In this document: positions 6,241 to 58,344 of the stretch, one piece after another | Layout of the letters: each line of letters starts with the position of its first letter | Position numbering within the stretch: position 1 is the stretch's first letter | Assembly (NCBI RefSeq): GCF_963921235.1 | Contig: NC_086097.1 | Span: 99,264,001 to 99,328,000 of the forward strand | Reading direction: 5' to 3' | Length of the DNA: 64,000 bases | Source of the DNA: Mobula hypostoma | Lineage: Eukaryota | Notes under the pieces: model-generated | The model's database searches: none | What the model saw: only the letters and a program-made list of their open reading frames with translations | What the model was told of the DNA's origin: nothing | Translations under genes and position numbers: made by a program

Positions 6241-6660
6241 GTGAAGAAAGCACAGCAGCACCTCGCCTTCCTTTAAAGTTTATGAAGATTCAGCATACCA
6301 TCTAAAACTTTGACCACTTTCAATAGATGTGTTGTGGAGACTAGATTAACTGGCTGCATCACAACCTGGCATGGAAAAACCAATGCCCTTGAATGGAAAA
6401 TCCTACAAAAGGTAGTGGATAATGGCCAGTCCATCACAGATAAAGCCCCCCCCCACCCCCACCACCACCATTGTGCACATCTGCACAAAGTGTTGTCACA
6501 GGAAAGCAGCATCCATCATCGCTATCCAGGTCATGCTCTCTCCACACTGTTGTCATTAGGAAGGTGGTACAGGAGTCTCAGGACTCACACCATTAGGTTC
6601 AGGAAGTTATTACACCTCAACCATCAGGCTCTTGAACCAAAGAGGATAACTTCACTCAAC
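6241..6660 (+). mobile_element. Rex1/Babar-type LINE fragment, 3' part
   Basis: KKAQQHLAFL, LTGCITTWHG and HALSTLLSLGRWYRSLRTHTIRF motifs. Confidence 0.75.
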
Positions 6661-6769
6661 TTCATGTTGTTGCATGAACAAAATCACCAGAGAGAAGTAC
6701 AGTACTGGTAAGTATGAAGCAGTCTCTTTATTCAACAAAATATCACAAATAAGCTGACAGCCTTTGGAG

Positions 6770-6912
6770 AAGAGAGAAGGAGAGGGAGAGAGATGGGGAG
6801 GGGAGAGGGAGACAAACGGGGCAGAGAGAGTGGGAGATGGAGGGAATGGGAAAGAGGGAGGGGGAGAGGGGGCGAGAGGGAGGGAGGAGGCGAGGGAGGG
6901 GAGAGGGAATGG
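6770..6912. repeat. Polypurine (GA/GGGA) low-complexity tract
   Basis: Almost purely G/A for ~140 bp. Gives rise to several spurious Pro/Ser- and Gly/Glu-rich ORFs. Confidence 0.9.
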
Positions 6913-7049
6913 AGATATACACACATTTTATACGCTGAAGATCATTCAAGCCAAGGTCAAAGGACAATTCCATATTTACAGTGCTACCTTTCAACTACAT
7001 GTAACAGTTTCAAATGCTTGGATCTTCCCACCACCATACCTTCCTGATA

Positions 7050-7420
7050 AGATGTTTTCCTTCGTGTGAAGGAAGCTGAGGATGTACTTAACAGAGGTGT
7101 GAAATTTACGAGGGCCACAGCAAGGGTAGATAGCCATAGCAGAAGTATGTTAAACCAGAGACATGGGCTTAGGATAAGGAGCACAAGGTTTTAGAGGGAA
7201 TTGGAGAAATTTTCCCACCCCTAAAGATGATCAGAATCTTGAAAATACTGACTTAGTTGGTGATGGATACAGATACCCTAACATTTAAAGAGTATTGATG
7301 TGTACTTGAATTGCAAAGACATGGACCAGGTGCTGGTAAGTGTGATTAGTATGTGGTCACCATGGATTTGGTCATCTGAATGGTCTTTTTTTCTTGTTAC
7401 ACCACACTATGATTCTATGA
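7050..7420 (+). mobile_element. Old CR1 3' fragment
   Basis: CR1 3'-end similarity, ending ctatgattctatga. Confidence 0.6.
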
Positions 7421-7719
7421 TGTCGGAGCCAAGTAGACCTACTGAAAACCAAATTTGACACTGGTAAGCCCAATAATATGGAATAAGTACCACTCTTAGC
7501 ACTGTCAACACCAACCACATGAAGTGAGTGTCAGAATCTGGGGCTCACTCTCAAATTTAATTATTCTGATCAATAACCTAAATTACCATGATCAAGAGCA
7601 AATCTGTTTTCTCCCCAAACATATGACTATTGACTTTGAATAATAAGGTCATGGTGATTTGTAGATTCCCCTATTAACACAAATGAGCAGAATCCCTGCA
7701 TGTTTCTCCAAAAGCATTC

Positions 7720-46129: not shown

Positions 46130-47865
46130 AGACTCACAAATAAGAGAAAATCTGCAGATAACACACATCAAAGTTGCTGGTGAACGCAGCAGGCCAGGCA
46201 GCATCTCTAGGAAGAGGTGCAGTCGACGTTTCAGGCCAAGACCCTTCGTCAGAAAATCTGCAGATGTTGGAAATACAAGCAACACACACAAAATGCTGGA
46301 GGAACTCAGCAGGCCAGGTAACATCTATGGAAAAGAGTAAACAGTTGATATTTCAGGGTGAAGCCCTTCATCAGGACTAGAGAAAAGAGATGAGAAGTCA
46401 GGGTGAGAAGGTAAGGTGAAGGAGAGGAAGAAAGACAAGGTAGTAGGTGATAGGTGAAACCGGGAGAGGGGGAGGGGTGAAGTAAAGAGCTGGAAAGTCA
46501 ATTGGTGAACGAGATAAAGGACTGGAGAAGGGGGAATCTGATTGGAGAGGACAGAAGACCGTGGAAAAAAAGGAAAGCAGAGGAGCACCCAGAGGGAGGT
46601 GATGGGCAAAGTAAGATGATAAGGTGAGAGGGGGAAATGGGAATGGGGAATGGTGAATGGTGAAGGGCTTAGGGTGGCATTACCAGGAGTCTGTGAAATC
46701 TATATTCATGCCATTAGCTTTGAGGCTACCCATATGGAATATAAGGTATTACTCCTCCAACCTGAGTGTGGCCTCATCGCGACAATAAAGGAGACCATAG
46801 ACTGACATGTCGGAATGGGAAGCGGAATTAAAATAGGTGGCCACTGGGAGATCCCACATTTTCTGGTGGACAGAGCGTAGGTGCTTGGCGAAGTGGTCTC
46901 CCAGTCTATGTCAGGTCTCACCAATATACAGGAGGCCATACCGGGTGACCCATATGTGAAATGTGACTCACCTGGAAAGACTGCTTGGGGCTTTGAATGG
47001 TACTGAGGGAGGTAGTGTAGGGGCACATGTAGCACTTACTCCACTTACAATGATAACTGCCGGGGGGAGGTCAGACGAGGAGTGATGAATGGACAAGGGA
47101 GTTGCATAGGAAGTGATCCTTGCGGAAAGCAGGCAATGGGGGTGAGGGAAAGATGTCCTTGGTGGTGGGATCCTGTTGGAGATGGCAGGAGTTACAGAGA
47201 ATTATGGGCTGGATGTGGAGGCTGGTGAGGTGGTAGGTGCAGACAAGAGGAACCCTATCCCTGGTGGGGTGGTGGGAGGAAGGGGTGAGGGCAGACATGC
47301 ATGAAATGGAAGAGATGTAGGCAAGGGCAGCATTGATAGTGAAGGAAGGGAAGCCACTTTCTTTGAAGGAGGACATCTCCTTAGATCTGGAATGAAAGGC
47401 CTCATCCTGAGAGCAGATGTGGCGGAGACAGAGGAATTGTGAGAAGGGGATGGCATTTTTACAAGTAACAATGTGGGGGTCCAGGTAGCTATGAAAAACA
47501 GGTATAAAAGATATCAGTAGATAGGCGGTCTCCAGAGATAGAGACAGATAGTTTGAGAAAAGGGAGGGAAATGTCAAAAATGGGCCAGGTAGGGAGAAAA
47601 TTGGAGGCAAAGTTAATTGTCAAAAAGCTCCGCATGGGTGTAGGAAGCAACACCAATGCAGTTGTCGTGTAGCACAAGAAAAGTTGGGGACTGATATTAG
47701 TGTAGGCTAAGAACATAGACTGTTCCACGTAGCCAACAAAATGACAGGCATAGCTGGGACCCATGGTTGTGCCCAGCTACACCTTTTGTATCATGGAAGT
47801 GGAAGGAGAAATTATTGAGAGTGAGGGCCAGTTCCGCCAGACAGAGGAGAATGGTAGTAGAGGGG
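46130..47865 (-). mobile_element. Penelope-like element (RT C-terminal half + GIY-YIG endonuclease, degenerate)
   Basis: MGPSYACHFVGYVEQ, KNAIPFSQFLCLRHICS and ctcctgtatattggtgagacc (LLYIGET). Confidence 0.85.
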
Positions 47866-47984
47866 AACTGGTTGGATGTGAAAGATTACGTCTTTGGGAA
47901 GTGTGCCCAGATGCAACTCCTGACTGACTACATGAAGAAGATGAATTTGGAGTTGGACATAATCAGGATATGGGTGGAAGTCAG

Positions 47985-48681
47985 TGTAAGGGGGTTTCGA
48001 TTTTTATGTTACTGCGGAGGCTAATTAAAATGGCGTCTTTGTTATGTTAATCTGGGGAATGCTGCTTTGTTGTCTTAAACGCTGAGAAAGTTTGCGCTAG
48101 CAGCTTGTTGTGGTTTAGAGGGTGATAAGAAATACGTTATTAACCAATTGGGATAGTTGTTATGGTTTTGGTGTATTTGAAGATACTGTATGCATGGGGT
48201 TTTGGGGTAGAAGGCGGGAGAGCGAGACAGAGGATGGACGAAGTGCTGTGAGTCCGCTAACGGGGTCAGACCCCGAGCGGGACGTTCGGCAAGGAGACGG
48301 AGACAGATTCATGTGGAGCGTCTGGTCGACCACCGTTGTTGGTCCCAGGCAGCCGGTCGAGGTGGTCCGAGGGGATCGCAGGGCGAAGAAGAAGGTCCTT
48401 GAGCTCCAACGGGTTTTTTTGTGCACAAAGAGATTGAACTTTGATAAGTGTGGTGCCTTTTATTTTCCTTTTATATTTTATTCTCTTTTAATTACATAGT
48501 TCCAGTTATATCTATAAACTGTAAATCATTTAATTGCATCTGGTGTATTGTCTGTTATTTGGGCGGGGTGGGGTACCTCACACAGCATCTGCACAAACAA
48601 GTTATCCAGTTTGGCGGGACCGAGGCTGTTTCCCTAGACGACAGCGAGCCGAGCGACCCTGAAAGTGGCCGGGGGGCTACA
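47985..48681 (+). repeat. 5' LTR (697 bp)
   Basis: tgtaagggg...gggctaca, a direct repeat of 51393-52082. Confidence 0.95.
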
Positions 48682-50299
48682 TTGTGGGGGCTTTGTCCGG
48701 GATGCTTGAGTCTGTTGGTATGCTGTGTGAGTGCCCTGTTTAAATCTGTAGTGTGTCTCTCTGTGGGTTATTTGCTGGTTATTGCTGTATGCATGGTGGG
48801 TGAGGTCTTTGTTCGAGTTCAGTCTGGCATTGACGAGTTGGAGGTGGCACTCGGGGCTGTCCATGCGGTTGGGAGAGAGAGGAAAGAGTGGTCTGATTTG
48901 GAGGTAGAGTCTGCGAATAAATGTTCTAGCTCTGGCAGGCTCCGCCTGGCACTTGGGATAGTGTCCACCCCAGGAGAGGCGGAGGCATGTGAGACGCGGG
49001 CGGAGAGGATCTCTCAGTTGTTAGATGAGTGGCAGTGCTCGGTTGAGGGAGAGCGACAGGGATTGGTTGAAAGTTTGAGTAGGCGGGCTGGTGACAGTGT
49101 TAGAGCTGTCAGGTTCACTTACACCGTAGTGACAGCTGTCGGTTATTTGAAAGAGGGGGGAAAGTTTTTAGTGAGTCTTCTCTGGCAAGGAGGGCGGCTA
49201 AATTGCTTGTAGTGCCAGGGGGATCATTTCAGGGGATCAGCCCCTCCCTCAGTTGTTCAGCTGATCAGAGAGGGATCGAGAAACTTAGTGGAGGCCCAGT
49301 GGGGGAACGGCTTGGGGTCTCTGGGGAAGCACGTTCCCAGCAATGTACCACTGAACTTCCGCAAGGAAAAGACCCTATTCCTGAAGGTTTAGAGGGACCA
49401 CGCCCCAGGGTGTCGTTATGAATAGAGGGAAGCGATGCTAAAGCCATCCTCGACCTCGGGGCACAGATCAAGTTGTTGTACAGTTCGTTTTACAACCGGT
49501 GTCTGAAGCATTTATCCTTGACAACCGCAAGGGCACCGGAGACTTTGGGTACTAGTGGCAGTAGTTATCCAGAAGACGATGATTGGTTAATGACCCTGGA
49601 GTTCATGGAGGCATTTTCTGGGCACCCAGCGTGTCGAGTTGCTTCTGAGGACGTGTGTAGCAGGCTTGAGCCAGTACCGAATTTAAACGAGACCCAGCGG
49701 TGGTACGGCTTGGGGAAAGTAGCTGAGGGTGAGACCCTCTTAGTAGATGCTCCGAACCACCACGAGGGAGGGGAGTTGACTGCTGAGGACACCTCAGAGA
49801 GAGAGAGGTCGCAGCAACTGGACCCTGGCGGTGTGGAAGATGAAGGCAGCGTGTGTGTGGATGATGCGATGTGGTTTAATGTGCTGCATCTGAGGAGTGG
49901 ATGTTGCCAGATCCTGAGGAGTGCGGCTGTTGAGCTGGAGATGGCCTTTACTAGTTCCCTAGGATTCTTTCGATCCGAAAAGATGCCCAAGGGCATATCC
50001 GGAGCCCCTGCATCCTTCCCGCGGGGCATGAGGAAAACCATGGAGGAAGTGAAGGTGTGTGGAGTTTTGACGTATGTGGATGACCGCCTAGAGCTTGGAT
50101 TCACCTGGGGGGACTATGAGGCGAGGCGAGGCGAGTGGCTGAGCCCGGGCGACCGAAGTGAAGTGTCAAATGTGGAGGAGTTTTTGGCCGGAGGAGTTTG
50201 GTGCAAAATGACCCGACATACCAGTTGAACTTCCTGGTGTTGGGACAGACGGTGGTGGACCTGGGGATGAAAACCTGGGTCGTCAATCTGAATGAGACA

Positions 50300-50890
50300 C
50301 AGGGGAGAGAGGGGATTTGCACCGCACTGCGGTCATATACTGACGAATTAATCTAGCGAGAAGAAACAATGACCCGCCTTCGAAGGGATCAGCAGAAACT
50401 CAAGACGTCGATTCAGAACAGATTGGAAGACTTGCAAGTTGGGGAAGATCATGGAAGTGTTCTGACTAAGGTCAACAGAAAACCGAGAGCCCAGGGAGGG
50501 GAGTTTGACTACACTCCCGAGGAGGTAAAGAAATGGAGGACAGATCTCGGAAAAGGGAGGCAGACGCTTGAAAGGAACCTGAAGATGACTATCGCGAGTT
50601 TAAATGAAGTGGAAAAACTGAACGTTGACCTGGAAGACGCCCTCAGGAAGAAACCGCCGGAGGCTGAACATTCTTTAACTGCTGCTTTTCAGGTCAGGGA
50701 GGGAGAAGCTGGTGGGGTAACTGCATCCCAGACTGAGATGGCCAGGAACCCTGAGTCAGAACTGCGGAGGCTGTGGCGAGAGTTGAAGGAGTCCCTGAAG
50801 AAGCTGACGTCTCGACTGCAGGAGGCTGAAGGGGTAGCCCCGGCTAAATGTTTCAGTTTGGAGAAACTTAACCAGCAGCTATCGATCGAG
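50300..50890 (+). pseudogene. Captured sarcomeric myosin heavy-chain rod fragment (MYH16-like) within ORF 50369-51103
   Basis: LEDLQVGEDHGSVLTK ~ LDDLQAEEDKVNxLTK; EEVKKWRTDLGKGRQTLERNLKMTIASLNEVEK ~ EQEKKxRxDLExxxRKLExDLKMTIDNLNEME; ELKESLKKLTSRLQEAE...AKCFSLEK ~ ELEEAKKKLAQRLQEAE...AKCSSLEK. Compared from memory. Confidence 0.75.
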
Positions 50891-51392
50891 GGAATGAGGA
50901 AGGATATGGATTCGAAGGATGATGTGCTGCACATGTGGAACATGCTGCCTTTCGCTAACTTCCCCATGATTGAGGAAGAGACCTTTGGCCCTTCTCCCAC
51001 TGAGTCAGGTGTAGTGGGGAGGGCTAGCTGTGGGCAGTCTGAGTTCCGGCAGAATTGGGAAGGAGGAGAGGCGGGGCCCTGGACACGGGACTGGGGGCTC
51101 TGAGCTGTAGTGGTGGCCTGAGTGACAGAGGAGTTGGCAAGCAGGCCCGAGGTATCCCTAGTAGTGTCTGAGCCTTTTGGGTTTAGGTGAGGGGGGTACG
51201 GAGGTCTCAGAGGGTTAAGAAGCTCCCAGATAGGTTGGCGTATTTAGCGCCCGTGGGACGGGAGTAAGGTCCACTGTTTGGGGAGAACTGTCACTGTGTG
51301 TATCTGTGTAAGTTTGTGTTGTGTGTCTGTAGGACTGGGTGGCGAGTTATTTAGAAGTCATGAGGACATGACTTTATTTGGTGGGGGGAGAG

Positions 51393-52082
51393 TGTAAGGG
51401 GATTTCGACTTTTATGTTACTGCGGAGGCTAATTAAAATGGCGTCTTTGTTATGTTAATCTGGGGAATGCGGCTTTGTTGTCTTAAACGCTGAGAAAGTT
51501 TGCGCTAGCAGCTTGTTGCGGTTTAGAGGGTGATAAGAAATACGTTATTAACCAATTGGGATAGTTGTTATGGTTTTGGTGTATTTGAAGATACTGTTGC
51601 GAGGGGGTTTTGGGGGTAGAAGGCGGGAGAGCGAGACAGAGGATGGACGAGGTGCTGTGAGTCTGCTAACGGGGTCAGACCCGAGCGGGACGTTCGGCAA
51701 GGAGACGGATTCGTGTGGAGCATCTGGTCGACCACCGTTGTTGGTCCCAGGCGGCCGGTCGAGGTGGTCCGAGGGGGTCGCAGGGTGAAGAAGAAGGTCC
51801 TTAAGCTCCAACGGGTTTTTGTGCACGAAGAGATTGAACTTTGATAAGTATGGCACCTTTTATTTTCCTTTTATATTTTATTCTCTTTTAATTATATAGT
51901 TCCAGTGATATCTATAAACTGTACATCATTTAATTGCATCTGGTGTATTGTCTGTTATTTGGGTAGGGTGGGATACCTCACACAGCATCCACACAAACTA
52001 ATTACCCAGTTTGGCGGGGCCGAGGCTGTTTCCCTAGACGACAGCGAGCCGAGCGACCCTGAGGGTGGCCAGGGGGGCTACA
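51393..52082 (+). repeat. 3' LTR (690 bp)
   Basis: tgtaagggg...gggctaca, preceded by the polypurine tract. Confidence 0.95.
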
Positions 52083-55000
52083 TCAGGAACAGGAAGGAAG
52101 CAGTTACTCTACTGGGGGTATCCTATAGGCCCCCTGGTAGCAGCAGAGATACAGAGGAGCAGATTGGGAGGCAGATTTTGGAAAGGTGCAAAAATAACAG
52201 GGTTGTTATCATGGGTGACTTTAACTTCCCTAATATTGATTGGCACCTGATTAGTTCCAAGGGTTTAGATGGGGCAGAATTTGTTAAGTGTGTCCAGGAT
52301 GGATTCCTGTCACAGTGTGTGGACAGACCGACCAGGGGGAATGCCATACTAGATCTAGTACGAGGTAATGAACCGGGTCAGGTCACAGATCTCTCAGTGG
52401 GTGAGCATCTGGGGGACAGTGACCACCGCTCCCTGGCCTTTATAATTATCATGGAAAAGGATAGAATCAAAGGGACAAGAAAATTTTTAATTGGGGAAAG
52501 GGAAAATTATGAGGCTATAAGGCTAGAACTTGCGGGTGTGAATTGGGATGATGTTTTTGCAAGGAAATGTACTATGGACATGTGGTCGATGTTCAGAGAT
52601 CTCTTGCAGGATGTTAGGGATAAATTTGTCCCGGTGAGGAAGATAAAGAATGGTAGGGTGAAGGAACCATGGGTGACAAGTGAGGTGGAAAATCTAGTCA
52701 GGAGGAAGAAGGCAGCATACATGAGGTTTAGGAAGCAAGGATCAGCTGGGTCTATTGAGAAATATAGGGAAGCAAGAAAGGAGCTTAAGAAGGGGCTGAG
52801 AAGAGCAAGAAGCGGGCATGAGAAGGCCTTGGCGAGTAGGGTAAAGGAAAACCCCAAGGCATTCTTCAATTATGTGAAGAAAAAAAGGATGACAGGAGTG
52901 AAGGTAGGACCAATTAGAGATAAAGGTGGGAAGATGTGCCTGGAGGCTGTGGAAGTGAGCAAGGACCTCAATGAATACTTCTCTTCGGTATTCACCAATG
53001 AGAAGGAACTTGATGATGGTGAGGACAATATGAGGGAGGTTGATGTTCTGGAGCATGCTGATATTAAGGGAGAGGAGGTGTTGGAGTTGTTAAAATACAT
53101 TAGGACAGATAAGTCCCCGGGGCCTGACGGAATATTCCCCAGGCTGCTCCACGAGGTGAGAGAAGAGATTGCTGAGCCTCTGGCTAGGATCTTTATGTCC
53201 TCATTGTCCACGGGAATGGTACCGGAAGATTGGAGGGAGGCGAATGTTGTTCCCTTGTTCAAAAAAGGTAGTAGGGAAAGTCCGGGTAATTATAGACCAG
53301 TGAGCCTTACGTCTGTGGTGGGAAATCTGTTGGAAAAGATTCTTAGAGATAGGATCTATAGGCATTTAGAGAATCATGGTCTGATCAGGACAGTCAGTAT
53401 GGCTTTGTGAAGGGCAGATCGTATCTAACAAGCCTGATAGAGTTCTTTGAGGAGGTGACCAGGCATATAGATGAGGGTAGGGATGTGATCTATATGGATT
53501 TTAGTAAGGCATTTGACAAGGTTCCACACGGTAGGCTTATTCAGAAAGTTAGAAGGCATGGGATCCAGGGAAGTTTGGCCAGGTGGATTCAGAATTGGCT
53601 TGCCTGCAGAAGGCAGAGGGTGGTGGTGGAGGGAGTACATTCAGATTGGAGGATTGTGACTAGTTGTGTCCCACAAGGATCTGTTCTGGGACCTCTACCT
53701 TTCGTGATTTTTATTAACGACCTGGATGTGGGGGTAGAAGGGTGGGTTGGCAAGTTTGCAGATGACACAAAGGTTGGTGGTGTTGTAGATAGTCTAGAGG
53801 ATTGTCAAAGATTGCAGAGAGACATTGATAGGATGCAGAAGTGGGCTGAGAAGTGGCAGATGGAGTTCAACCCGGAGAAGTGTGAGGTGGTACACTTTGG
53901 AAGGACAAACTCCAAGGCAGAGTACAAAGTAAATGGCAGGATACTTGGTAGTGTGGAGGAGCAGAGGGATCTGGGGGTACATGTCCACAGATCCCTGAAA
54001 GTTGCCTCACAGGTGGATAGGGTAGTTAAGAAAGCTTATGGGGTGTTAGCTTTCTAAGTCGAGGGATAGAGTTTAAGAGTCGCGATGTAATGATGCAGCT
54101 CTATAAAACTCTGGTTAAGCCACACTTGGAGTATTGTGTCCAGTTCTGGTCACCTCAGGATAGGAAGGATGTGGAAGCATTGGAAAGGGTACAGAGGAGA
54201 TTTACCAGGATGCTGCCTGGTTTAGAAAGTATGCATTATGATCAGAGATTAAGGGAGCTAGGGCTTTACTCTTTGGAGAGAAGGAGGATGAGAGGACACA
54301 TGATAGAGGTGTACAAGATAATAAGAGGAATAGATAGAGTGGATAGCCAGCGCCTCTTCCCCAGGGCACCACTGCTCAATACAAGAGGACATGGCTTTAA
54401 GGTAAGGGGTGAGAAGTTCAAGGGGGACATTAGAGGAAGGTTTTTTACTCAGAGAGTGGTTGGTGCATGGAATGCACTGCCTGAGTCAGTGGTGGAGGCA
54501 GATACACTAGTGAAGTTTAAGAGACTTCTAGAGAGGTATATGGAGGAGTCTCAGGTGGGGGCTTATATGGGAGGCAGGGTTTGAGGGTCGGCACAACATT
54601 GTGGGCCGAAGGGCCTGTACTGTGCTGTACTATTCTATGTTCTATGTTCTAGGATCATATGATACACTTCCAATTTCATAGATATTTATCTTGGTAAGGT
54701 GGTCACACCCAAGGTACAGGCAAAAGTATTTGGTGACCCAAAGGAAAAGGGGGGTAAATAGAGGGTGCAGGTCATTCCCCTCAAAAACAGGTATACCATT
54801 TTGGACACTGTTGGGTGGAATGACCATTCAGGAGAAGACAGTACTAGTCTGGTCGGTGGCATGAGTACTGGCTCTGAGACTCAGCAGGGAAGGGTGAATG
54901 AATAAAGGACAACAGTGATAGGGGACTCTATAGTTGGAGGGGGGCAGATAGACAATTCTGTGGCTTCAAAAGGGACTCTAAATAGCTGTGTTGCCCCCTT

Positions 55001-56327
55001 GGTGCCAGGGTCTAGGATGTTGCAGAGCAGCCACAGAACATTCTTAAGAGAGAGTGAACGGACAGAAGTTGTTGTAATTTATGCCAACGTATACGTGGAT
55101 AGAGAAAGAGATGAGGTCCTGTGGGATGAATATAGGGAGCTGGAGGAGAAGTTAAAAAGCAGGACCAAGGATAGTAATCTCTGTACTATTCTCCAGTGAG
55201 AATAATAATAGGAGGATATGACAAATGAATGTGCGGCTGAAAAATTGGTGTAACGGCAGAGATTCAGAGTTCTGGACCATTGGGATCTCTTCTTCAACAG
55301 GGGTGACATGTACAAGAGGGGCAGGTTATACCTGACCTGGAGGGGGAGCTGACAGGTAGTTTTGCTAGTATTACAGGCTGGGGTGGGTCTTAACTAGACT
55401 GGGATCCTAAGCAACAGGGAGGCAAATGAGAGGCTGTAAAGTGTTGCAGAAGTCAAGGACAGCAAGTTGAATGGGCATGACAGACAGGAGAGTCCATTGG
55501 ATTAAACAACAATTTCAATGCAAGAGGTACTACAGATAAAGGCAGATGAACTTGGAGCTTGGATAGCTACGTGGGCTGAGGGTAATATACCCAAATGCAG
55601 AACATGGCTAAGGAGGGAAAGAACTGGCAGCTTAATGTTTGGGGAACAGGTGCTTTAGATGGGATAGAAGCAAAAGAAAGAGAAAGGAGAGTTACAGAAG
55701 TATAATCAGGAAGGCAAAAAAAGAGGCATGAGATACTTTGGTAGAGACTACAATGGAAAATCAAAATATTTTTATGTATTTTAAGGGGGAAAAAAGTAAC
55801 CAGAATGAAAATAGGGCCCTTCAAATTCCAAAGGGGACACCTTTGTGTGGAGCGCCACAGGAAATGGGCAAAGTTTTTAATGACTATTTGCCCATAGGTT
55901 TTACTGTTGAGAAAAACAAAGATGTGAAAATTAGGAAAATTAAATGAGGAGGTCCTGCAGATATTCCACATTGCAGTAGAAGCGATATTAGATTTTTTAG
56001 TAAGTGTGAAGGTAAACTAATTACTAGGGCCTGACCAAGTTTGTCCAAGTACTATGTTGGAGGCCAGAAAAGAAATGGCAGGAGCCCCAGCTAAGGTATT
56101 GCAACATCATTAGCCACGGGAGAGCTGCTGGTAAACGAGAAGGTAACGAATGTTGTGCCTTTATTTTAAAAGGGCAGCAAAGAATAAATCTGGGAAATAT
56201 AGGTCATTAATTCCAATATTCTGTGGTAGATAAGTTACTGGAGAGGATTCTGTGGGGTAAGATATACATATATACACAGAGACAGAGGTTGATTAGTCAA
56301 AGTAACTTTACTATTAAAGTACATATA

Positions 56328-56516
56328 CGAGGGGTGATTGATAAGTTCGTGGCCTAAGATAGGAGTCAATTTTAGAAAACCTAGGACATTTATGCTCCAT
56401 GACCGCTAGACTGAGTGTGTACATGTAGGAGGGGGCTATGTTGAAAAATAAATGTGCTAGGTTTTCTAAAATTGGCTCCTTCTACCTTAGGCCACGAACT
56501 TATCAATCACTCCTCA
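56328..56516 (+). mobile_element. Mariner-derived MITE, TA TSD, ~65-bp TIRs
   Basis: ta|cgaggggtgattgataagttcgtggcctaag ... cttaggccacgaacttatcaatcactcctca|ta. The interior encodes a mariner-like C-terminus (...ECVHVGGGYVEK*). Confidence 0.88.
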
Positions 56517-58344
56517 TATATGTTACCATATAATTACCTTGAGATTCATCTTCTTGCAGGCATTTACAGGGAAACAAATACAATAGAATTTATAAAAAAG
56601 TATACATAAGGACTACAACTGTGCAAAAGAAGACAAATTGTGCAAATAAAACAATAAGTAATACTGAGAACATGAGTTGTAGAGTCCTTAAAACTGAGTC
56701 TGCAGTTTGTGGAATCAGTTCAGGGTTGAGCTGAGTGAAGTTATTCACACCTGTTCAGGAGCCTGATGGTTATAGGGTAATAACCCTTCCTGAACTCGGT
56801 GCTGTTGGACCTAAGGCTCCCGTACCTTCTGCCCAATGGTAGAAGTGAGAACACAGCATGGCCTTAATGCTGTGGGTCCTTGATGATGGATTCTGCTTTC
56901 TTGTGGCAACACTCCTTATGAATGTGCTCAGTGGTGGGGAGAGCTATGCTTGTGATGTACTGGGCTCCATCCACCATTTCCTGTAGACCTTCTCTGTTCT
57001 TGGGATTGATATATCTACAGTAGACCCTGATGCAACCAGTTAGAGTAGTTTCCATTGTGCATCTATAGAAGTTCGTCAAAGTTTCTGATGGCATGCCATA
57101 TCAATGCAAACCCCAAAGGAAGTAAAGGCACTATCATGACATTTGCATGCTGGCCCCAGGACAAATCTTCTGATATGATAACGCCAAGAAATTTAAATTT
57201 TCTGACCCTCACCTGATGAGGACTAACTCATGGAGCTCCAGTTTCTTCCTACTATAGTCAATAATCAGCTCTTTGGTTTTTCTGACATTGAGTGAGAGGT
57301 TGTTATTCAACAAGATTTTTCAATTTCCCTCCTATATGCTAATTCATCACAATCTTTGATTTGGCCAACAACAGTGGGTCATCAACAAAATTAAATAAGT
57401 CATGGGAGCTGTACTTAGCCATATAGTCATAAGCAAGTAAAGCAAGGGTCTAAGCACAAAACCTTGTAGTGCACCTGTGCTAATAGTGATTGAGGAGATG
57501 TTATTGCTAATCTGAACTGACTGAGGTATGCAAGTGAGGAGATCAAAGATCAGTTGCACAAGAAAGCATCAAAGTCCAGGTCTTGGACCTTAGTAATTAG
57601 TTTTGAGAAAATTATAATGTTGAATGCCGAGCTGTAGTCAGTGGGGAGTATCCTGATGTATGCATCTTTATTGTCCAGGTGCCCCAGAGCTGAGTGAAGG
57701 GCCAATGAAATAGCATCTGCTGTTAACCTGTTGTGACAGTAGCCAAAATAGAGTGGATCCAGGTCGCTCCTCAGGCCAACTTCTCAACCAATTTCTAGAA
57801 GCACTTCATTATGGAAAGTGTAATTGCTACTGGATGATAGTCACTGAGGCATGTTATCATGTTCTTCTTGGGAACCAGTATGACTGAAGCCTCCTTGAAG
57901 CAGATGGGCACCTCAGACTGCCGAAGCAAGAGATTGAAGATGTCTGTAAACACTCCAGCCACAGGTCTTCAATACTCAGCTAGGTACACCATCTGGGCCA
58001 AGTGCTTTCCGTGGATTCACCCTCCAGGAGGTTGCTCTTGCACTGGCCTCAGAGATTGAGATCACAGGGTCGTTGAGGGCTATGGAAGCTTGTGAAGGTC
58101 CCTCCATTTTCTGTCAGTCAAAGTAAGCACAAAAGGCACTGAGCTCATCTGGGAGTAAAAACTTGTTGTTTATGTGACTTAGTACTGCTTTGTAGGAGGT
58201 GATAACATTCAAGCTTGCCACAGTTGTTGAGCATCCTTCAAGTTTAGTCCAGAATTGCTATTTTGCATGTGAGATAGCTTAATAGACCCCTTGTACTTTC
58301 CTGGGTCACCAATCCTAAACACCACTGATCTAGCCCTCAGGAGA

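Follow-up and report, generated by a model that had tools for sequence, protein, structure and literature searches.

The window analyzed here is a 64,000-nucleotide stretch of the forward strand of Mobula hypostoma contig NC_086097.1 (positions 99,264,001 to 99,328,000, assembly GCF_963921235.1). At 47985-52082 it contains a 4.1-kb long terminal repeat (LTR) retrotransposon whose pol region carries a segment derived from the rod of a muscle myosin. The two LTRs have TG...CA ends and share 93.7% identity over 703 columns, and the pair is flanked by a TCAG target-site duplication. Between the LTRs lie remnants of a PNMA-type gag and of pol domains in the Gypsy order, without integrase; the full order is present in two autonomous relatives, L055 and L056. 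The assignment to Gypsy is based on these domain families and on the gag type, and it agrees with an earlier note on this DNA, made from the letters alone, which had recognized a Gypsy element with closely similar LTRs. The element is very likely one copy of a high-copy, non-autonomous Ty3/Gypsy-type family of myliobatiform rays. Its parts, all on the + strand, are the following.

47981..47984 (left) and 52083-52086 (right), +: target-site duplication TCAG, read from the sequence
47985..48681, +: 5′ LTR (TG...CA), 93.7% identical to the 3′ LTR; repeat families D1-D4
48685..48702, +: primer-binding-site-like TGG... stretch, 3 bases past the 5′ LTR; read from the sequence
48964..49137, +: N-terminal gag remnant of PNMA type (Pfam PNMA E 0.0022, below the cut-off)
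49422..50098, +: decayed protease-like and reverse-transcriptase (RT) remnant (AILDLGAQ at 49443-49466, YVDD at 50073-50084)
50207..50260, +: ribonuclease H (RNase H) remnant, N-terminal part only, 18 codons, collinear with the RNase H of older and autonomous relatives
50261..50893, +: myosin-rod-derived segment, five collinear blocks, ~630 bases, with an in-frame TAG at 50354-50356
50894..51103, +: post-integrase, C-terminal pol-derived tail, 70 codons, in frame with the myosin part; the frame closes at 51103
51380..51392, +: polypurine tract GGTGGGGGGAGAG, which abuts the 3′ LTR; read from the sequence, with the same tract before the 3′ LTR of the relative L044
51393..52082, +: 3′ LTR, which pairs with the 5′ LTR

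PNMA gag is unambiguous in relatives of the window element (Pfam E values of 1.2e-14 in L044 and 5.5e-37 in L055). RVT_1, which gives E 0.034 on the window RT remnant, reaches 5e-12 over the same region of L042, and RT_RNaseH gives 2.7e-11 in L041. These three loci, L041, L042, and L044, are older relatives that share 77-79% identity with the window element along the internal region. In the window copy, the RT and RNase H remnants are separated by a frame change, with 49422 and 50162 lying in different frames.

On the + strand, the myosin-derived segment is traversed by a frame of 248 codons that stays open between 50357 and 51103; counted from its first ATG at 50369, 244 codons are left. A lone TAG at 50354-50356 precedes it, with 64 more open codons upstream in the same frame. 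The frame, the stop codon, and the peptides quoted in the earlier note are all present as described there. The note had placed the switch into coiled-coil sequence just after the YVDD motif of RT; the switch does lie downstream of YVDD, but ~60 codons later (~50261), with the RNase H remnant in between.

The coiled-coil segment is derived from a myosin rod

When the window open reading frame (ORF) was compared by phmmer with every chain in PDB, 13 sequences scored E ≤ 10. The ten with the best scores are striated-muscle myosin II or a MYH7 fragment, and residues 2-103 of the ORF form a gapless alignment to Myosin-7 residues 986-1087 (E 2.1e-5); the three non-myosins have E values of 0.42-0.89. 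A profile of 11 family members searched against PDB gives 12 myosins at E 5e-14 to 1.6e-4, followed by three non-myosins at E 0.43-0.7. Among 5.8 billion clusters, all 74 of the longer proteins at E ≤ 1e-3 combine myosin head and tail domains. The insert of L041, L042, and L044 shares 42-43% identity with a ray myosin-7-like protein and 43-49% with shark MYH16, each over 222-258 contiguous residues, and identity with shark MYH16 reaches 54% in shorter copies. The window copy shares 27-34% identity with myosins.

The limits of the myosin blocks in the window copy were placed via the less deleted relative L044, in which Pfam finds two Myosin_tail_1 matches (6.4e-10 and 3.3e-4) that are collinear on the model. 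Five collinear blocks, among them the EAGG..SQ.EM block, correspond to approximately MYH16 residues 905-926, 967-1079, 1089-1098, 1141-1173, and 1381-1417 (shark MYH16 P0261 numbering). Where the earlier note had seen two separate regions of the rod, the origin in the rod stands and the two regions become five blocks. When examined as a possible working myosin, the segment fails: it comprises rod residues ~905-1417 only, is interrupted by four internal deletions and by a stop codon, and contains residues that break the helix. It is a myosin fragment and no myosin gene.

Some of the domain searches speak against a myosin origin. At E ≤ 1, Pfam Myosin_tail_1 matches none of 11 family proteins, the window ORF among them; all that Pfam finds in this ORF are weak, sub-threshold matches to mixed coiled-coil families; and the best Myosin_tail_1 score of L044 (38.0 bits) falls just short of the cut-off of 38.1. 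In the myosin search proposed in the earlier note, PDB, BLASTP, and L044 yield a significant, collinear match, and the Myosin_tail_1 model misses the window copy. Together with the low identity of the window copy to myosins, these results could be taken to indicate that the coiled-coil stretch is a native domain of the Gypsy lineage, or that its likeness to myosin reflects generic heptad similarity. Such a reading is scarcely credible. Non-myosin coiled coils score E 0.4 or worse, as against myosins down to 5e-14; older copies share 43-55% identity with myosins over more than 220 contiguous residues; a transposon copy and an exon of the host share 90% identity; and autonomous relatives have integrase, and no coiled coil, at the same place. 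It is already refuted, the loci concerned being 77-79% identical internally to the window element.

The insert crosses host exon junctions without introns

In canonical host MYH16, located on contig C36, rod exons encode ~20-90 residues and are separated by introns of ~0.5-2.4 kb, with junctions at 885/886, ~960, 996, 1026, ~1073, 1104, 1123, 1153, and onward. Three located exons of a second, MYH16-like gene on contig C68 lie 79 and 132 kb apart. On C91, a transposon copy runs without interruption through residues 881-1138, spanning seven of the canonical junctions, and the window copy spans at least four (996, 1026, ~1073, and 1153). The contiguity across seven host MYH16 junctions points to an origin in a spliced messenger RNA (mRNA). 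With the crossing of these junctions and the profile match at 5e-14, the description of an intronless, internally deleted fragment of sarcomeric myosin rod in the earlier note is borne out. That the insert is myosin-derived and intron-free is virtually certain.

The myosin fragment stands in the place of integrase

A search with RNase H led to the autonomous relatives L055 and L056, whose LTR pairs are 94.6-95.2% identical. Both carry PNMA gag and a long pol frame in which RVT_1, RT_RNaseH, and RT_RNaseH_2 are followed by Integrase_H2C2 and rve. L044, the least deleted chimera, matches them at 71-73% up to ...YRPGSRNID.D.LSR, the end of RNase H. The match resumes well past integrase, at VWY.LPF...GPS..ESGE (63%, with E values between 4e-7 and 2e-8), and BLASTP places the L044 tail within the pol frame of each relative (pol55 1111-1137 and pol56 1145-1171, 63%). 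Between these two points, L044 carries MYH16-like residues ~886-1173 and 1381-1417, and its single myosin gap falls within a repeated ELEE[S/T] motif. The window tail is 70% identical to the autonomous relatives at the nucleotide level, and tblastn locates it in their pol frame with E values between 2e-7 and 5e-9. The in-frame run from the myosin segment into a post-integrase pol tail, as proposed in the earlier note, is thus confirmed by the position of this motif downstream of integrase in autonomous relatives. We also considered the myosin locus as the origin of the tail and rejected it, as neither tail DNA nor tail peptide has a match in 20 kb of the host MYH16 gene; the tail is pol-derived.

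The myosin piece is flanked by parts of one retrotransposon, with the end of RNase H upstream and the C-terminal pol motif downstream, and it follows from this position that integrase was what got replaced. We hold this replacement in a Gypsy element to be nearly certain. Integrase is absent from all copies examined (the window copy, L001-L030, L041-L048, and L050-L053), with RT and RNase H truncated. The earlier note had the fragment replace RNase H as well as integrase, and only the latter holds: RNase H is whole in older relatives and a remnant in the window copy, and its loss came after the capture. Nor is the segment a standard part of autonomous Gypsy pol, a possibility that the note had set against its own proposal, for L055 and L056 have integrase there.

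In autonomous PNMA-gag Gypsy relatives, the C-terminal region of pol also contains 84-base tandem repeats just past the tail motif, at 6994-7635 of L055 and 7222-9766 of L054. They encode GEGVAEPPVFQPGL-like units, and their number is highly variable among copies.

A divergent MYH16-like paralog is the probable source

In a BLASTP comparison of the window ORF with 192 full-length myosins, the top 30 matches are all of the MYH16 type, with a best score of 78.6 bits versus 66.6 bits for any other myosin. A profile of older copies, in which the proteins P0093 and P0095 were also included, finds its best matches among MYH16 (superfast) myosins of many vertebrates (to 6e-72); counted by hand, ~88 among the best 120 rows listed are named myosin-16, MYH16, superfast, or masticatory. 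We then placed the insert in a maximum-likelihood tree that combined 14 transposon rows with 12 MYH16 proteins, the exons of host MYH16, 12 myosins of other types, and the proteins P0093 and P0095; the 24 reference myosins were hand-picked for taxonomic spread. Transposon and MYH16 rows are jointly split from the other myosins (support 100/100). All transposon rows form one clade with P0093, a protein of Narcine (100/99), and the sister group of this clade comprises all sampled MYH16 (99/97). Approximately unbiased (AU) tests weakly reject a position of the transposon clade inside the MYH16 of elasmobranchs or of chondrichthyans (p 0.031 and 0.015, respectively), a result that fits a paralog as the source and no ancient capture.

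P0093 aligns with MYH16 over residues 797-877, 964-996, and 1024-1123, and its two gaps correspond to canonical exons 886-960 and 997-1026. This correspondence indicates that P0093 is a spliced isoform of an intron-bearing gene and is not transposon-borne. Its host orthologue lies on contig C68, with exons at 14,401,226, 14,480,487, and 14,612,355 that share 72-87% identity with P0093. The last of these (14612355-14612510), bounded by a 55-codon open frame, is 90% identical to transposon copy L041 over 52 residues, which is as near as transposon copies are to one another. It ranks fourth of the 150 matches listed, and exons of canonical MYH16 on C36 are absent among the best 150 matches in that search. 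Transposon copies share 73-74% identity with P0093 and 43-56% with canonical MYH16. Hence, the likeness to MYH16 that the earlier note had perceived is upheld as to type, while the nearest gene is the divergent paralog. We consider it likely that the source belongs to the lineage of this intron-bearing MYH16-like paralog on C68 and not to canonical MYH16 on C36.

Several points tell against this assignment. It is based on one 52-residue exon and on hit tables, and queries with long transposon copies matched transposon copies only, with no further C68 exons. In addition, the position of the transposon clade outside all sampled MYH16 involves long branches, and the AU groups were named post hoc. 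Canonical host MYH16 could be the source, with the odd tree position as a long-branch artefact, and it is canonical MYH16 of many vertebrates that provides the best named matches. This origin is nonetheless highly unlikely in view of the C68 exon at 90% identity against 43-56% for canonical proteins, the lack of any C36 exon among the best 150 matches, the grouping (100/99) of the transposon rows with the Narcine protein that is orthologous to the C68 gene, and the AU p values of 0.031 and 0.015 against nesting.

The C68 gene extends over ~14,401,226-14,612,513, with the fast-skeletal myosin cluster (C68 15.3-15.9 Mb) ~0.7 Mb away, and in Narcine the orthologue bears the annotation 'myosin-6-like isoform X4'. 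The 100 matches listed, of 125 scored, include no motor-domain exon of this gene, so that the paralog may be head-less, consisting of a rod only. The analysis thereby draws attention to a MYH16-like paralog beside the fast-skeletal cluster that is unstudied, has very long introns, and apparently lacks a head.

Proposed capture and mobilization of the chimera

The copies display a chimera in which the 5′ part of pol, a spliced myosin mRNA, and the 3′ part of pol are joined in frame, together with loss of integrase, secondary amplification, and progressive internal deletion. The anatomy suggests how the family ancestor would have arisen. The integrase part of pol, from just after RNase H to just before the conserved C-terminal motif, would have been swapped in frame for ~1.6 kb of spliced host myosin mRNA, corresponding to approximately rod residues 886-1417 of the C68 MYH16-like paralog. 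Two RT template switches between co-packaged element RNA and myosin mRNA probably produced this exchange, as proposed for LTR-mediated retrocopies of animals (Tan et al. 2016, Genome Res 26:1663, PMC5131818). The chimera would have kept its LTRs, primer-binding site, and polypurine tract while lacking integrase, and the loss of the enzyme with retention of these elements suggests that it was copied in trans by PNMA-gag autonomous relatives. Parts of gag, RT, RNase H, and the myosin insert would have been lost later, with the insert apparently decaying at about the same rate as the remainder of the element. The LTRs of L055 and L056 match that of the family in part (~79-89%), and gag, protease, and the tail are common to both as well. 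Against this account stands that no helper with the same LTR as the window family was found.

As for the route of capture, we lean toward template switching, which the earlier note had also inferred, over read-through and splicing. In the latter, which would resemble retroviral oncogene transduction, an element inserts into the myosin gene, a read-through transcript is spliced from a donor site of the element into myosin exons farther downstream, and the 3′ end is regained by recombination. The 5′ myosin limit (~residue 886) does lie within ~3 residues of exon junction 885|886; however, such closeness is expected about 1 in 7 times by chance with exons of 30-75 residues and is not significant. 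Moreover, the 3′ limit (~1413-1420) falls inside exon 1406-1427, and the tail matches pol and not the myosin locus. The junction sequences themselves are too decayed to read. Capture by read-through and splicing is a serious, though less likely, alternative.

The family is large and occurs in several ray genera

The 747-base ORF yields 1560 first-look candidates in the 3.48-Gb genome, and 40 of the 40 that were scored are 95-100% identical; queries with older copies yield ~3400 candidates. A 36-mer over the junction of myosin and tail has 456 genome occurrences at up to 3 mismatches, compared to 0 for a reversed control. The mean pairwise distance of 30 copies is 4.1%. A sister subfamily (L050-L053) has the same LTRs and is 88-92% identical to the window subfamily, in which most of RNase H and residues ~1080-1088 and ~1099-1140 are deleted and a 120-base deletion relative to L050-L053 takes out residues ~927-966.

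Annotated relatives are present in Mobula birostris, M. hypostoma, Hypanus sabinus, and Hemitrygon akajei. The earlier note had argued for a propagating, myosin-bearing family, and the 456 junction matches and the relatives in three ray genera (Mobula, Hypanus, and Hemitrygon) corroborate it. The Hypanus and Hemitrygon proteins have the same internal deletions as the window subfamily, indicating that this architecture predates these families or crossed between them.

The names of several annotated relatives refer to MYH16 or to muscle myosins, and one relative is a fusion with SDHAF3. P0005, P0008, P0085, P0087, P0088, P0089, and P0010 (M. hypostoma and Hypanus sabinus) are pieces of the family that carry its RT remnant or pol tail, and the public names of these models include 'putative uncharacterized protein MYH16' and 'myosin heavy chain ... 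-like'. In the Hypanus SDHAF3 'isoform X1' model, a LYR domain is joined to the myosin-tail segment of the transposon. These misleading ray gene models, both the short proteins named MYH16 and the chimeric SDHAF3 isoform, are explained as transposon-derived, and myosin gene counts and studies of jaw-muscle myosin in elasmobranchs should mask copies of the family.

Public contigs of three studies, of unknown kind, span the whole element and attest its presence only. Contigs of one public run, likewise of unknown kind, join across 50430-50797 and 50619-50753, skipping 366 and 133 bases, which suggests further copies with internal myosin deletions of their own.

The myosin frame shows no detectable coding constraint

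We measured Nei-Gojobori ratios of nonsynonymous to synonymous substitution rates (dN/dS) in samples of 30 young, 4 sister, and 3 older copies. Values are 0.53-0.58 in the myosin frame, compared with 0.47-0.96 for the two wrong-frame controls and 0.63-0.84 for the RT remnant, which is dead. No coding constraint on the myosin frame was detected, its dN/dS falling within the wrong-frame range, and the comparison among copies that the earlier note had suggested is uninformative in this respect. The myosin piece is probably a passenger without function.

Some properties of the frame sit uneasily with a passenger. Both junctions are in frame, and frames of 560-716 codons are kept in some copies. 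Among the 30 copies, a sample of the least diverged 2%, there are 11 in-frame stops versus ~20 expected by a rough estimate, and the 248-codon frame is stop-free in 21 of them versus ~52% expected, these being the least diverged 30 of 1560. Selection might accordingly be thought to hold the fused protease-RT-myosin-tail frame open: translation to the 3′ end could shield the RNA, the coiled coil could help the element ride in helper particles, or the host could use some copies, as inclusion of the segment in the Hypanus SDHAF3 isoform model might hint. We regard this as improbable. The dN/dS of the frame lies inside the wrong-frame range and is like that of the dead RT remnant, the catalytic regions that this frame also covers have clearly degenerated, pieces of the insert continue to be lost, and the choice of the least diverged copies inflates openness. 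Slightly more doubtful still is the specific proposal that an open pol-myosin-tail frame was favoured in transposing lineages, through RNA shielding or a fusion protein joining helper particles. If true, a host structural module would have been co-opted by a parasitic non-autonomous retrotransposon and would have helped it outnumber its helper.

Relation to known systems

In acutely transforming retroviruses with v-onc genes, a spliced host fragment replaces part of pol or env, and the resulting viruses are defective and helper-dependent. The ray family resembles them in its spliced host fragment in pol, its replication defect, and its presumed need for a helper. It differs in that there is no sign of a growth advantage, in being a germ-line retrotransposon and not an infectious virus, and in carrying a fragment of a structural rod. 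Pack-MULEs and Helitrons amplify host gene fragments that are captured at the DNA level with introns kept. The ray elements similarly multiply host gene fragments and create spurious gene models, whereas their capture was RNA-mediated and intron-free.

LARD and TRIM elements are non-autonomous LTR elements moved by relatives. The MaLR element, moved by MERVL, is another non-autonomous LTR element mobilized by a relative, according to PMC5131818. Like MaLR, LARD, and TRIM, the ray family has kept LTRs, a putative primer-binding site, and polypurine tract, has lost its enzymes, and would exceed its helper in copy number. Those elements are without a host gene; in the ray family, by contrast, a host coiled-coil fragment makes up a quarter of the internal region.

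Capture of host genes by LTR elements, with later amplification of the captured piece, is already known as a process. The LTR-mediated retrocopies of animals (Tan et al. 2016, PMC5131818) likewise hold an intron-free piece of host mRNA within a discontinuous LTR retrotransposon, the unit is retroposed anew as a non-autonomous element, and the insert can be in frame. They are young and number one to few copies, whereas the ray family is old, spans at least three ray genera, and comprises hundreds to thousands of copies. A hallmark of those cases is microsimilarity where the two sequences are fused; the ray junctions are too decayed for it to be read. Bs1 of maize, as summarized in the same source, also carries host-gene exon sequence in the LTR internal region, with switch points common to all copies. 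Bs1 has 1-5 copies and combines three genes; the ray family is large, with one gene fragment in place of integrase.

In the full-text literature, with bioRxiv supplements outside the scope, we found no paper that describes an LTR element with a myosin insert, and none that describes MYH16-like repeats in rays. Set against the one to few copies of the animal and maize cases in PMC5131818, the family provides a clear vertebrate case of a host gene fragment transduced by an LTR retrotransposon and then amplified to hundreds or thousands of copies. The thousands of dispersed coiled-coil-coding pieces constitute raw material for exon shuffling, and copies of the family could yield small RNAs matching the source gene.

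Neighboring features

The host of the insertion, which is not part of the element, is a long interspersed nuclear element (LINE):

52087..54584, +: LINE with endonuclease and RT (Exo_endo_phos_2 7.1e-11, RVT_1 2.8e-26)

The LTR element splits this LINE, with one piece at 52087-54584 (+) and the other at about 47719-47984, and the LINE reading frame picks up again directly after the 3′ LTR. The nested insertion implies that the LINE is older than this copy of the element.

Other repeats lie beside relatives of the element. Two kilobases downstream of the myosin-bearing copy in L042, at 6425-7426, is a second, unrelated Gypsy-type RT-RNase H frame of 334 codons. A tandem array with 825 open codons and STPTLNYPAP-like decapeptide repeats accompanies the family copy in L052 (G000 C22:70153000-70162999), at 1-2783 of the reverse complement. 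In the window itself, a 45-base inverted repeat at 56321-56365 and 56479-56523, with arms that are 91% complementary and 113 bases apart, may delimit a small DNA transposon.

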